Part shown: one piece after another, positions 1 to 7,988 of the stretch | How positions within the stretch are numbered: position 1 is the stretch's first letter | How the letters are laid out: each line of letters opens with the position of its first letter | NCBI GenBank assembly: GCA_965368975.1 | Contig: CBDUPA010000002.1 | Coordinates: 457,824 to 521,823 of the forward strand | Source of the DNA: an uncultured bacterium | Lineage (GTDB): Bacteria > Acidobacteriota > Thermoanaerobaculia > Multivoradales > JAHZIX01 | Length of the DNA: 64,000 bases | Direction of reading: 5' to 3' | Made by a program: the position numbers and the translations under genes | Notes under the pieces: generated by a model | Seen by the model: only the letters and a program-made list of their open reading frames with translations | Database searches by the model: none | What the model was told of the DNA's origin: nothing

Positions 1-636
1 TCTGCCAAGTTCGACGTGGTGGTCTTCGATACCGACGGTCGAGTGCTGGTGGAGATCGAAGGCTACACCTTGCGCCGGCTGAGTGCTGAGCAGCTCGCCG
101 TACCGACCACGCAGCCGGCCGAGGAAGCACCGCTGGCACAGGCCATTCGCAATGCCGAGGGAATCGAAGTGCTCGAGCGGATCCTGGCGGACCAGCTACC
201 GCAACGAGGCCTGGCGCAGGTGGCCGTCTCGACGGTTGATTTCGCAGCGCGGCTCGCACGGCTCGGCGAGACCCGCGCGCAGGTCGAGGGAGACGGCACC
301 ACCGCGAGCCACGCCAGACCCAACCTCTCGACGACCTACGTGGCGCCGAGTTCGGAGTTCGAGCGACACGTCGCCGAGGTGTGGAGGGAGTTGCTCGGCG
401 TCGAGGAGCTCGGAGTTCACGACGACTTCTTCGAACTGGGTGGCCATTCGATCTTGGCAACGCAGAGCGCGGCCCGGTTGCGGGAGAAGCTCGGCACGGA
501 CATGCCCTTGGACGAGTTCTTCGAAGCCAACACCATCGCGCAGCTGGCGCAGCGTCTACTCGACTTTGAAGCCGAGACAGCGGCGGAGGGCGCCGGCGCG
601 AGATCTTTGGGCGACATCGAAGAAGGCTCCCTGTGA
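1..636 (+). CDS. C-terminal end of an NRPS/PKS protein (5-prime partial; the gene begins upstream of the window), ending in a peptidyl carrier protein domain and a short C-terminal docking tail
   Basis: Frame 1 is open from nt 1. Translation contains the PCP core YVAPSSEFERHVAEVWRELLGVEELGVHDDFFELGGHSILAT (GGHS phosphopantetheine site near nt 440-452). The TGA stop at 634-636 overlaps the GTG start of the next NRPS gene (GTGA). Confidence 0.8.
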   Translation, partial: SAKFDVVVFDTDGRVLVEIEGYTLRRLSAEQLAVPTTQPAEEAPLAQAIRNAEGIEVLERILADQLPQRGLAQVAVSTVDFAARLARLGETRAQVEGDGTTASHARPNLSTTYVAPSSEFERHVAEVWRELLGVEELGVHDDFFELGGHSILATQSAARLREKLGTDMPLDEFFEANTIAQLAQRLLDFEAETAAEGAGARSLGDIEEGSL

Positions 637-6600: not shown

Positions 6601-7988
6601 TTCTCGTGGGACTCGACGACCGGCAGCCACACGTGCGGCAGATCCTCGAGCTGCCGGGCAGCGAGCCCAAGGACCTGCGTGCTTGGCAGCTCGCGGCTGC
6701 CATGGTGATCGAGGGCGGGGTGCAGCCACGGCTGGATGACTTCGCTTTGCGGGACCGCTTCGGCACCCCGGCTCCGTGCAGCACCCACGAAGTCGACACC
6801 TTACCGCGCGGCACGGACGGTGGCGTCGACACGCCCACATTGCGCAGGCGGCTTCAGCAGCTGGTCACGGGTCGGACGACAGTAGACCGGCACGTGGCAC
6901 CGCGCAGCGACCTGGAAGCCCGACTGGCTGAGCTGTGGCAAGAGCTCTTGGGTGGTGCTTCACCTAGCGTGCGAGACAATTTCTTCCGTCTGGGCGGCCA
7001 CTCCCTGTTGGCGTCGCGACTGGTTCTGGAGATCGAACGCCGTCTCGACACGCAGCTCCCCGTCTCGGCGCTGTTCCAGGCACCAACCATTGAACGCTTG
7101 GCGCGGATCATCGAGGCCCAGGAGCGGGGAGCCGGAGGCAGGGCCTGGTCGCCGCTTGTGCCGCTACAGCCGGAAGGCGATAGGACGCCCTTCTTTTGCG
7201 TTGCACCGATCATGGGCACGGTGTTTCCCTACTTCGAGCTGGCGCAGTTACTTGGGCCCGGTGCCTTGGACCGTCGGCGGCCGTTCGTCGGCGTCCAGCC
7301 GCTGGGCCTTGCTACTGGCCAGACGGCGCTCGCCACGATCGAGGAGATCACGGAATACTTCCTGACCGAGATCCGGGCACTGCAGCCGACGGGCCCGTAC
7401 TTTCTGGGCGGCTGGTCCTTCGGTAGCTTTGTGGTCTACGAGCTGACGCGCCGGCTACGCCAGCAGGGAGAGGAGATCGCCCTGGCCGCGCTCATCGATA
7501 CGCCAGCACCGCTACCGTCGCAACGACCGTCCTTCCTGCACGGTCTGCGCTTCCTCTTCGCCACTTTGCTGCGAAACTTTTGGCCGTGGGTCAAGGATTA
7601 CTTCGCCCTGCAACGCACTGGCGATTTCGGAGACGAGAAAGACAGCCGCGGTCTGTGGCAACGCTTGTTGGAGCGAGCAACGCTGGCCGAGGTGATCCCA
7701 GAGGAGTCGCGAGAGGTGATGTCGCACCAGCCACAGATCCGTGCCATGTTGCGCGCCATGCGCGCCAACAGCGAGGCGATGGGACGCTACCAACCGCGAG
7801 CCGCAGACGTGCGCGTGCTGCTGCTGCGCACCGAGCACAGCTGGAGTCGCAGCGAGGACGAGACGCTCGGCTGGAGCGAACTGGCCCTGGGCGGCGTCGA
7901 GGTGGAGCGGCTGCCGGGCAATCACATGACGCTGCTGCGGAAGCCGCACGTGGAGACGGTAGCGCGAGTGCTCGCGCGGTACCTGTAG
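633..7988 (+). CDS. Non-ribosomal peptide synthetase terminal module, 2451 aa: N-terminal docking, C, degenerate A remnant, acyl-AMP-ligase (FAAL)-like adenylation, KR, PCP, TE
   Basis: Single long ORF. C-domain motifs [12 protein letters not shown] and [9 protein letters not shown]. A-domain C-terminal motif remnant [15 protein letters not shown]. FAAL-like motifs [22 protein letters not shown] and [22 protein letters not shown]. KR Rossmann motif [14 protein letters not shown] with YGAANA. PCP motif [12 protein letters not shown]. TE motifs GGWSFGS and GNHMTLL. Start is GTG at 633, coupled to the upstream stop. Confidence 0.9.
   Translation: [2451 protein letters not shown]
810..2100 (+). 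other. NRPS condensation (C) domain
   Basis: Qxxx(L)WF-like [15 protein letters not shown] and the HHxxxDG catalytic motif HHSVYDGWS (nt ~1202-1228). Confidence 0.8.
2200..3050 (+). other. Degenerate or truncated adenylation-domain remnant (only C-terminal A8-A10-like motifs retained)
   Basis: About 280 aa between the C domain and the FAAL-like domain. Retains an A10-like [17 protein letters not shown] and an [10 protein letters not shown] (LPxYMIP-like) stretch. No TSGSTG, no YGPTE, no GELxIxG cores. Confidence 0.5.
3330..5050 (+). other. Acyl-AMP ligase (FAAL/FadD32-like) adenylation domain
   Basis: [14 protein letters not shown] (nt 3816-3857), [49 protein letters not shown]. Confidence 0.7.
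5900..6450 (+). other. Ketoreductase (KR) domain
   Basis: Rossmann GGxGxxG motif [18 protein letters not shown] (nt ~5929-5952). Also DVTDGAALE and the catalytic region [21 protein letters not shown]. Confidence 0.75.
6880..7100 (+). other. Peptidyl carrier protein (PCP/T) domain
   Basis: [41 protein letters not shown] (GGHS at nt ~6993). Confidence 0.85.
7170..7985 (+). other. Type I thioesterase (TE) release domain
   Basis: GxSxG motif [14 protein letters not shown] (nt ~7409) and the His-containing LPGNHMTLL near the C-terminus. Confidence 0.8.

Follow-up and report, generated by a model that had tools for sequence, protein, structure and literature searches.

The gene at 633..7988 of the window, the 64,000-nucleotide stretch of DNA from an uncultured member of the Thermoanaerobaculia that was analysed here, very probably (we would put it at about 85%) codes for the closing module of a PKS-NRPS hybrid, one with the familiar C-Ax-KAL-KR-T-TE layout, which would load and reduce a 2-oxo acid and form an ester. 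Judging from sequence features and characterised homologues, its putative function is most likely the loading of a 2-keto acid, its reduction to a hydroxy acid, the joining of the latter through an ester bond to a polyketide, and TE-mediated release. The original prediction had offered the incorporation of a keto-derived 2-hydroxy acid as the ester-joined last unit among other options, and by the same combination of sequence and analogy this appears to be the best reading. The pathways to pyridomycin, dolastatin 15, cryptophycin, and lactylates already show this design, of which 633..7988 is a further example.

Gene layout and neighbourhood

The NRPS gene is an uninterrupted forward-strand ORF of ~7.4 kb coding for 2451 amino acids, and a public collection contains an identical protein (P0001), encoded on a 588,756-bp contig. 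The gene begins with a GTG codon that shares bases with the TGA stop of the gene upstream (GTGA), and it is followed by a convergent ATP synthase operon; the cluster therefore ends after the NRPS gene. The features considered below are as follows, with residue numbers referring to the encoded protein:

1..636, + strand: 3' end of an upstream PKS gene (its 5' part lies beyond the window edge), covering the last part of a DH-like domain, followed by a linker, an ACP, and an acidic C-terminal tail
633..7988, + strand: NRPS gene, with docking domain, C, Ax relic, KAL, KR, putative pseudo-Asub half, T, and TE
675..785, + strand: TubC_N-type N-terminal docking domain, residues 15-51 (Pfam PF18563, E 3.9e-12)
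825..2240, + strand: condensation (C) domain, residues 65-536 (Pfam PF00668, E 3e-83)
2211..3035, + strand: remnant (Ax) of a canonical A domain, residues 527-801 (canonical A HMM, BLAST, weak LgrA Asub match)
3039..3164, + strand: pre-KAL block, residues 803-844, conserved in 40 KAL modules
3330..5060, + strand: KAL adenylation domain, residues 900-1476 (PDB search, motif survey, 36% identity to StsA)
5061..6602, + strand: PKS-type ketoreductase (KR), structural part ~1477-1755 and catalytic part ~1756-1990 (Pfam KR at residues 1763-1940, E 1e-36)
6666..6857, + strand: putative degenerate Asub C-terminal half after the KR, residues ~2012-2075, with Gly in place of Lys in a 15-letter A10-like motif
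6921..7109, + strand: thiolation (T, PCP) domain, residues 2097-2159 (Pfam PF00550, E 7e-16), with GGHS, Ser2124
7191..7973, + strand: type I thioesterase (TE), residues 2187-2447 (Pfam PF00975, E 1e-23), with GWSFG Ser2262 and GNH His2431

Pfam and HMM searches agree with the order of C, A-remnant, FAAL-looking adenylation domain, KR, PCP, and TE that the original prediction had read from the DNA, and on motif inspection C, KAL, KR, T, and TE each retain intact catalytic motifs, the relic being the exception. The C domain bears the active-site motif HHSVYDG at 191-197 (HHxxxDG type); a score-based comparison does not place it with other KAL-preceding C domains. In the upstream PKS fragment, residues 2-32 match Pfam PS-DH and residues 124-186 match PP-binding, and the acidic C-terminal tail probably docks onto the next protein. 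A homologous ACP end lies immediately 5' of the C-Ax-KAL genes of the comparison loci L011 and L030, and the order C-Ax-KAL-KR-T-TE is also found in L011 and L031.

The adenylation domain and the segment preceding it

Pfam assigns AMP-binding to residues 908-1308 (1e-36) and, weakly, AMP-binding_C to residues 1363-1457. In a phmmer search of solved structures in the PDB, the best match was StsA (6ULW/6ULX, E 1e-122), with McyG second (3e-102), FAALs at 1e-43 to 1e-30, and canonical A domains at 1e-19; the domain shares 36% identity with StsA and 40-55% with 60 genomic KALs. Placement by these search scores puts the domain in the StsA/Ces/PyrG-A2 clade, apart from both the canonical A domains and the FAALs; such domains have been grouped as KAL (2-keto acid AMP ligases) (PMC13643306). 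Its sites comprise A3 (1064-1073), Val1109, Trp1154, Gly1221-Met1222, A7 (1329-1334), A8 (1346-1365), and Lys1457 (A10), and the two motifs quoted earlier for this domain, one of 10 letters and one of 20, were both found, at 1064-1073 and 1346-1365, respectively. Val1109 aligns with StsA Ile306, which is the Asp235 position, and Gly1221-Met1222, replacing Gly-Pro in A5, aligns with StsA Gly414-Met415. In StsA, the Gly-Met pair contacts the keto carbonyl, and a hydrophobic residue occupies the Asp235 position (PMC11253843; PMC7923214). McyG, a KR-less protein whose crystal structure contains a Phe adenylate, also possesses Val235 and Gly-Met; therefore, these residues are clade markers rather than proof of keto-acid use.

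The view that this is no canonical amino-acid A domain is upheld both by the replacement of Asp235 by Val1109 and by the TIGR01733 score of 110 bits against a cut-off of 317. Its approximate specificity code is V-V-T-W-N-G-A-T-A-K, and comparison with the characterised codes of Ces, PksJ, and PyrG shows differences at pocket positions (PMC5238615). The domain's pocket motifs (HVVPxLTxH and a second motif starting with Wx) recur in ~60 KAL-KR-T modules from many phyla.

Between the C and KAL domains, a canonical A HMM built for this analysis matched residues 527-589 with model positions 1-61 (the A1 region) and residues 733-799 with model positions 460-523 (E 1e-8), so that the A-remnant of the original prediction is real; this search of the protein gave no match to A2-A5. 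The segment retains degenerate A6-A10 motifs at ~620-801, has lost A2-A5, including the A3 P-loop, by deletion, and carries Gln790 in place of the A10 Lys. In BLAST against homologues with a full Ax, residues ~620-900 align to the last third of Ax and the linker, while the LgrA Asub matches weakly. As read from its sequence, the C-to-KAL segment represents the remains of a canonical A domain and is catalytically dead; with the core and the Lys missing, it is, on the same grounds, neither a canonical A domain nor active. Across 64 related genomic ORFs, the state of Ax runs from complete to undetectable.

The ketoreductase, the predicted chemistry, and its alternatives

The KR aligns with that of StsA and bears the NADPH motif TGGLGGIG (1766-1773), Lys1872, Ser1895/1896, Tyr1909, and Asn1913. 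An AlphaFold model of residues 1477-2165 (pLDDT 72) has 6ULW as its best structural match (Foldseek E 1.5e-28), with EryKR1 and further PKS KRs next (TM 0.8 when normalised to the target's length). From both sequence and model, this is judged, as originally proposed, a genuine KR of the PKS type, placed in cis after the adenylation domain and before T. In StsA, a pseudo-Asub is split into ~30 residues before the adenylation domain and ~70 that lie between KR and the T domain (PMC10510592; PMC7923214), and a passage of PMC7923214 citing Alonzo et al. reports this motif as exclusive to keto-acid-utilising NRPSs. By analogy with these descriptions, the pre-KAL block is probably the N-terminal half of such a split pseudo-Asub. 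The ~65 residues after the KR would be its C-terminal part, as in StsA, for which the support is a family-level profile: that of 45 post-KR segments matches the last ~60 columns of a canonical A profile (hhalign, Prob 94.8%, E 5e-8). The window's post-KR sequence alone matches canonical A weakly, and model confidence is low there.

The chemical steps that we propose draw on these features and on characterised homologues. The C-terminal tail of the upstream ACP protein would dock onto the TubC_N-type domain, and the KAL domain would adenylate a 2-oxo (alpha-keto) acid and load it onto Ser2124 of the T domain. The in-cis KR, with NADPH, would then reduce the 2-oxoacyl group, still tethered as a thioester, to its 2-hydroxyacyl counterpart, whose 2-hydroxyl is predicted to attack, in the C domain, the acyl thioester of the polyketide brought in on the upstream ACP, giving an ester (depsi) bond. 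Finally, the TE would free the product via hydrolysis or macrolactonisation.

It is highly improbable that the domain is a true FAAL that loads the PCP with a fatty acid as the last unit. The FAAL-like label of the original prediction does stand insofar as general libraries rank the domain as fatty-acid-ligase-like: among NCBIfam models, residues 900-1475 are best matched by those of long-chain fatty-acid ligases and FAALs (PRK07768 at 264 bits and the FAAL model PRK09192 at 178, ahead of TIGR01733). Moreover, the FAALs (FadD32, FadD23, and those of E. coli/Legionella) belong to the same ANL superfamily branch, nearer to KAL than the canonical A domains are, have WAPNF-type and GREK-type motifs in common with it, and carry an insertion where KAL has ~20-25 more residues between A5 and A6 than canonical A domains. 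Nevertheless, all these NCBIfam scores lie under their cut-offs, with the FAAL models far below (PRK09192 178 vs 600, PRK05850 168 vs 775, and FadD32 114 vs 975 bits), and the solved FAALs are 80-90 orders of magnitude weaker matches than StsA. The label fails in this respect, as does the separation that it implied from the known A-KR systems, for StsA, a cereulide-synthetase homologue, is in the same class. FadD23 differs at the Asp235 and Gly-Met positions, with His-Asp in place of the KAL's His-Val and Gly-Leu in place of its Gly-Met. FAALs are loaders onto ACPs, not found behind a C domain with a KR, and here a FAAL would leave the in-cis KR substrateless. Furthermore, a plain fatty-acyl thioester presents the C domain with no acceptor nucleophile, and the fatty-acyl last unit that had been entertained is therefore unlikely.

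Also unlikely is a McyG-like or hydroxy-acid loader that takes a non-keto acid (such as a phenylpropanoid, aryl acid, or preformed 2-hydroxy acid), with the KR redundant or acting elsewhere, although McyG is the second-best solved relative with the same two pocket markers, and KR-less KAL-T-C modules in Verrucomicrobiota have nearly the same pocket motifs. Against it, the KR is intact, in cis, and followed by the predicted pseudo-Asub half with its reported link to keto-acid use; all characterised KAL-KR-T modules (Ces/Sts, PyrG, Dol15D-M2, and AulA) take 2-oxo acids, according to the papers cited here; and a phenylpropanoid lacking both hydroxyl and amino groups cannot be a C domain acceptor. 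The absence of A2-A5 and of the catalytic Lys from Ax, in an uncultured organism, could also be taken as pseudogenisation, making the whole module a decaying, non-functional remnant. We give this little credence given the uninterrupted ORF and the intact catalytic motifs of the other domains; besides, Ax decay is family-wide, being seen also in PyrG and Dol15D-M2, whose activity is proven (PMC13643306), and in dozens of genomic homologues.

Relationship to known keto-acid modules

The arrangement had been thought unusual, a view that is not sustained: the C-Ax-KAL-KR-T(-TE) keto-acid module has been described for PyrG, Dol15D-M2, CrpD-M2, and ClyF, with 125 five-domain and 337 four-domain homologues counted (PMC13643306). 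PyrG of Streptomyces pyridomyceticus, compared here from its published description, uses its second A domain to take a 2-keto acid in pyridomycin synthesis, with the KR reducing it on the PCP (bioRxiv 10.1101/2021.10.14.464479; PMC10510592). Like the window's protein, it is a terminal NRPS after a PKS (PyrF), with tandem A domains of which the first is inactive, lacking the A3 motif and catalytic Lys (PMC13643306). Unlike the window's Ax, with its A2-A5 deletion, the first A domain of PyrG is still called by antiSMASH, and its code is VGMTIGASGK (PMC5238615), as against ~VVTWNGATAK. Dol15D-M2 of the dolastatin 15 pathway shares the order, in which a KAL, called 'CAL' by antiSMASH, is embedded behind an inactive Ax, as well as Val at the Asp235 position and Gly-Met; this KAL adenylates 2-ketoisovalerate but is inactivated by the V219D change (PMC13643306). 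It differs in being internal, cyanobacterial, and furnished with an Ax retaining A1-A10, whereas the window's module stands last in its line (TE), acts after a PKS, and derives from Thermoanaerobaculia. AulA, for its part, activates 3-methyl-2-oxovalerate (PMC5238615).

The terminal ester-forming modules with a TE, ClyF/NocQ (chlorosphaerolactylate) and CrpD-M2 (cryptophycin), offer a further parallel. ClyF, a C-A-KR-T-TE protein that uses pyruvate to form lactyl esters, acts after the PKS ClyE, which ends in DH-T (PMC7923214) as does the upstream fragment in the window. Its 'A' region of 810 residues implies extra sequence before the KAL, which has Val1007 and Gly1115-Met1116 (PMC7923214). 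Their substrates are pyruvate for ClyF and 2-ketoisocaproate for CrpD-M2, and the upstream cly genes are FAAL/ACP/halogenases. StsA/CesA, an A-KR-T initiation module (6ULW, 6ULX), gives the best match among solved structures for both the KAL and the KR-pseudo-Asub part, but has neither a C domain nor Ax; its pocket reads HIGGIVMFH, against HVVPMLTYH in the window, the latter type being commoner among genomic KALs.

A continuum of Ax decay has been described, in which partial Ax regions keep A6-A10 (PMC13643306), and this is exactly the state of Ax in the window. We tentatively raise two possibilities: the module may stand evolutionarily between the five-domain form (C-Ax-KAL-KR-T) and the four-domain one (C-KAL-KR-T), and its cluster, in an uncultured member of the Acidobacteriota, may make an undescribed polyketide 2-hydroxy-acid ester/macrolactone. 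With Ax reduced to the A1 region and A6-A10 beside what would be a complete split pseudo-Asub, such an evolutionary intermediate, if it is one, could reveal which pieces of Ax are structurally indispensable.

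Domain architecture and setting of the terminal NRPS gene

The NRPS gene (ORF 633-7988, forward strand) encodes 2451 aa without interruption. Its Pfam matches, motifs and intact reading frame bear out in every particular the original prediction of a condensation (C) domain, an A remnant, a FAAL-like adenylation domain, a KR, a PCP and a thioesterase (TE); both of the motifs cited there are also present (residues 1064-1073 and 1346-1365).

Features of the NRPS protein (residues) and its flanks (window positions)
Residues 15-51, forward strand: TubC_N docking domain (Pfam)
Residues 65-536, forward strand: condensation domain (Pfam, E 3e-83), with HHSVYDG at 191-197
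Residues 908-1308, forward strand: AMP-binding domain (Pfam, E 1e-36)
Residues 1763-1940, forward strand: KR (Pfam, E 1e-36)
Residues 2097-2159, forward strand: PP-binding, i.e., thiolation (T) domain (Pfam), with Ser2124
Residues 2187-2447, forward strand: thioesterase (Pfam), with Ser2262 and His2431
Positions 1-636, forward strand: truncated preceding ORF (211 aa), whose end comprises a DH-like segment, then an ACP, then an acidic tail
Positions 8099-15407, reverse strand: F1Fo ATP synthase operon, convergent on the NRPS gene and beginning ~110 bp past its stop

The GTG start codon and the TGA stop of the preceding gene share bases (GTGA), an overlap suggestive of translational coupling. 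Homologues retrieved with the 211-aa fragment of that gene did not include the full-length PKS. The convergent ATP synthase operon just downstream indicates that the NRPS gene closes its biosynthetic cluster; no terminator was found in the gap between the NRPS stop and this operon. Within the operon, a 704-aa ORF (8499-10613, reverse strand) is over-extended, its first ~200 codons overlapping a gamma-subunit-sized ORF in another frame (9995-10873).

Elsewhere in the window, a second, single-module NRPS of 1615 aa (45688-50535, forward strand) has the architecture LLM-C-A-T, with an N-terminal luciferase-like monooxygenase (LLM) domain; it adjoins a class I methyltransferase (44214-45533, reverse strand) and lies ~38 kb from the keto-acid module, with housekeeping genes between them. 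The window has a single marked GC dip (0.573 at 50-52 kb), and in it lies the gene for an Mrr_cat nuclease-NB-ARC-TPR protein (50540-53098, reverse strand), a STAND NTPase architecture also known from some anti-phage systems. At 54951-58799 (forward strand), BshC, PIG-L deacetylase (BshB-like) and GT4 glycosyltransferase (BshA-like) domains are encoded by three neighboring genes, which look like a bacillithiol-type thiol biosynthesis set. The SufB protein of the window shares 85% identity with proteins of Thermoanaerobaculia MAGs, so that the host probably belongs, as an uncultured member, to this class of Acidobacteriota. A homogentisate-dioxygenase-like cupin beside a 4-hydroxyphenylpyruvate-dioxygenase-like protein (21967-24280, reverse strand) probably represents tyrosine catabolism, and the window annotation yielded no evidence linking this pair to the keto-acid module.

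The probable keto-acid ligase domain and its degenerate neighbors

In general libraries, fatty-acid ligases rank highest for the adenylation domain (residues 900-1476): the NCBIfam model PRK07768 scores 264 bits, the FAAL model PRK09192 178 and the amino-acid model TIGR01733 110, all far under their cut-offs. Among solved structures, the matches are graded as follows.

Matches of the adenylation domain among solved structures
StsA, keto-acid-selecting A-KR module of a cereulide-type synthetase (6ULW/6ULX): E 1e-122
McyG: E 3e-102
FAALs: E 1e-43 to 1e-30
Canonical A domains such as LgrA: E 1e-19

The domain, a predicted 2-keto acid AMP ligase (KAL), shares 36% identity with StsA over 601 residues and 40-55% with sixty genomic relatives; a scan of genomic contigs recovered relatives at 55% identity or less only. 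Motifs A3, A7 and A8 and the A10 Lys1457 are all intact. In the alignment, StsA Ile306 pairs with Val1109, at the Asp235 position of amino-acid A domains, and StsA Gly414-Met415 with Gly1221-Met1222. Between the Gly and the Met, the backbone carbonyl touches the keto group; amino-acid A domains have Pro where this Met stands (PMC11253843; PMC7923214). At the two diagnostic sites, the FAAL FadD23 shows His-Asp and Gly-Leu. Both the Val and the Gly-Met of the window KAL recur in McyG; hence, they mark the clade rather than keto-acid use in itself. The substrate code (approximately V-V-T-W-N-G-A-T-A-K) matches none of five published keto-acid codes (PMC5238615). Most genomic KALs have pocket motifs of the form seen in the window KAL ([33 protein letters not shown]).

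Between the C and KAL domains lies the relic of a canonical A domain (Ax). A canonical A-domain HMM made from 40 A domains of homologues matches residues 527-589 at model positions 1-61 (the A1 region) and residues 733-799 at positions 460-523 (A9-A10, E 1e-8), with Gln790 at the A10 Lys position, and finds no match to A2-A5; in BLAST comparisons, residues ~620-900 align with the last third and linker of complete first A domains of homologues. These matches indicate that a degenerate A6-A10 survives in Ax and that the catalytic core is gone. Residues 595-617 of Ax (window 2415-2483, [23 protein letters not shown]) resemble one armadillo repeat and match designed ARM proteins (summed E 3e-7); we judge this a chance match, as each per-domain E is 7-30, against repeated copies.

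The KR aligns with that of StsA, retaining the NADPH motif, Lys1872, Ser1895/1896, Tyr1909 and Asn1913. Modeled with AlphaFold, residues 1477-2165 (pLDDT 72, pTM 0.68) have 6ULW as their best structural match (E 1.5e-28), followed by PKS ketoreductases such as EryKR1 (~520 columns, TM 0.8 normalised to target length); these matches identify the unannotated stretch 1477-1755 as the KR structural subdomain. To our knowledge, the PKS LDD/W stereochemistry rules do not transfer to alpha-keto reduction. Only a single stereospecificity motif is described for these KRs (PMC7923214).

When the KR-to-T segments of 45 homologues are combined into a profile, hhalign pairs it with the final ~60 columns of the canonical A profile (Prob 94.8%, E 5e-8); in the window protein, this corresponds to residues ~2012-2075, where an A10-like motif has Gly for Lys. 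Just before the KAL, residues 803-844 form a block conserved in 40 modules. The non-catalytic C-terminal A subdomain (pseudo-Asub) of StsA is likewise split, into ~30 N-terminal residues and ~70 residues after the KR (PMC10510592; PMC7923214), to which, purely by analogy, the two window segments may correspond.

Known C-Ax-KAL-KR-T systems and the spread of Ax decay

The window NRPS has exactly the C-Ax-KAL-KR-T arrangement named in a study of dolastatin 15 (PNAS 2026, PMC13643306), in which biochemistry showed that the keto acid is activated by the KAL, labeled ‘CAL’ by antiSMASH, and not by Ax. Further cases given there are PyrG, HctF-M1, HcaB and HapC, and the homologues number 125 with five domains and 337 with four. 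The study assigns KALs to a separate ANL clade, distinct from both FAALs and canonical A domains, divides its labelled set into aliphatic and aromatic clades, and describes Ax reduction as a continuum in which partial Ax regions keep A6-A10 (PMC13643306). PyrG, the terminal NRPS downstream of a PKS, has an inactive first A domain; its second A domain activates the keto acid, which its KR reduces in tethered form (bioRxiv 10.1101/2021.10.14.464479; PMC10510592). In AulA (A1-A2-KR-PCP), A1 is dispensable (PMC5238615). ClyF (C-A-KR-T-TE), which forms lactyl esters from pyruvate, follows the PKS ClyE; like the fragment upstream of the window NRPS, ClyE has DH-T at its end (PMC7923214).

Our survey covered 71 genomic loci encoding a KAL relative, with the KAL carried by 64 ORFs from Acidobacteriota, Myxococcota, Cyanobacteria, Verrucomicrobiota, Planctomycetota, Chloroflexota, Proteobacteria and other phyla. 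Across these ORFs, the pre-KAL region ranges from complete to undetectable.

State of Ax in genomic loci encoding KAL relatives (L-numbers denote loci)
Complete Ax: L016, L011, L030, L004, L028, L017
Ax with internal deletion: L048, L013, L037, L046, L053, Xanthobacter loci
Last ~90 residues of Asub only: L001, L005, L031, L015, L034, L052, L056 and others
No detectable Ax: L042, L062, L045, L041, L054

The C-to-KAL spacer of the window NRPS (360 aa) is mid-range, close to that of L067 (352 aa), and two loci, L011 and L031, also display C-Ax-KAL-KR-T-TE. In L011 (66-17710, a Blastocatellia MAG), this module, with a full Ax, directly follows a PKS of unusual order (KS-AT-KR-DH-ER-ACP) and precedes a patatin-like lipase and a glycosyltransferase; the product of this compact cluster could be an acyl hydroxy-acid ester. 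Seven loci from Verrucomicrobiota and Methylomirabilota (L018, L019, L026, L057, L035, L003, L033) encode KAL-T-C without a KR, with the KAL at ~40-630 of each ORF and pocket motifs nearly as in the KAL-KR-T modules; they may act as starters, either retaining the 2-oxo group or loading a non-keto acid.

Predicted chemistry and its implications

The domain identities, motif integrity and family signatures are established for the window NRPS, and each chemical step is modeled on characterized homologues. We propose that the KAL would adenylate a 2-oxo acid and load it on Ser2124, the KR would convert the tethered acid to a 2-hydroxyacyl thioester, the C domain (HHSVYDG) would join this unit, as an ester, to the polyketide from the upstream ACP, and the TE (Ser2262, His2431) would free the product, either by hydrolysis or by cyclisation. 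This is the most likely sequence of events, with a probability of roughly 85%. The bit scores of other KAL-preceding C domains, a possible ‘ester-forming’ subtype, overlap fully with those of ordinary C domains and so speak neither for nor against grouping this C domain with them.

The original prediction, whose interpretation is supported in part, had offered a keto or hydroxy acid and a fatty-acyl unit as alternative last building blocks, of which the keto-acid route is the one favored. Loading of a fatty-acyl unit fails on three counts, namely the similarity scores, the residues at the diagnostic sites and the chemistry, for such a unit would bring neither an acceptor nucleophile nor a substrate for the KR. 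Use of a non-keto acid by the KAL, in the manner of McyG, is possible but sits poorly with the intact KR and the pseudo-Asub. Pseudogenisation is at odds with a 7.4-kb ORF that is uninterrupted and has kept its motifs.

The module, read as a keto-acid route, leaves existing knowledge of these enzymes unchanged. It provides a further example, here in an acidobacterial class that has barely been studied, of assembly-line products acquiring ester bonds by the KAL route, and it documents well an Ax domain of which half is deleted. It is also of modest use for annotation, as general tools label such modules ‘CAL’ or FAAL-like, and may help engineers choose which parts of Ax and the pseudo-Asub are removable.
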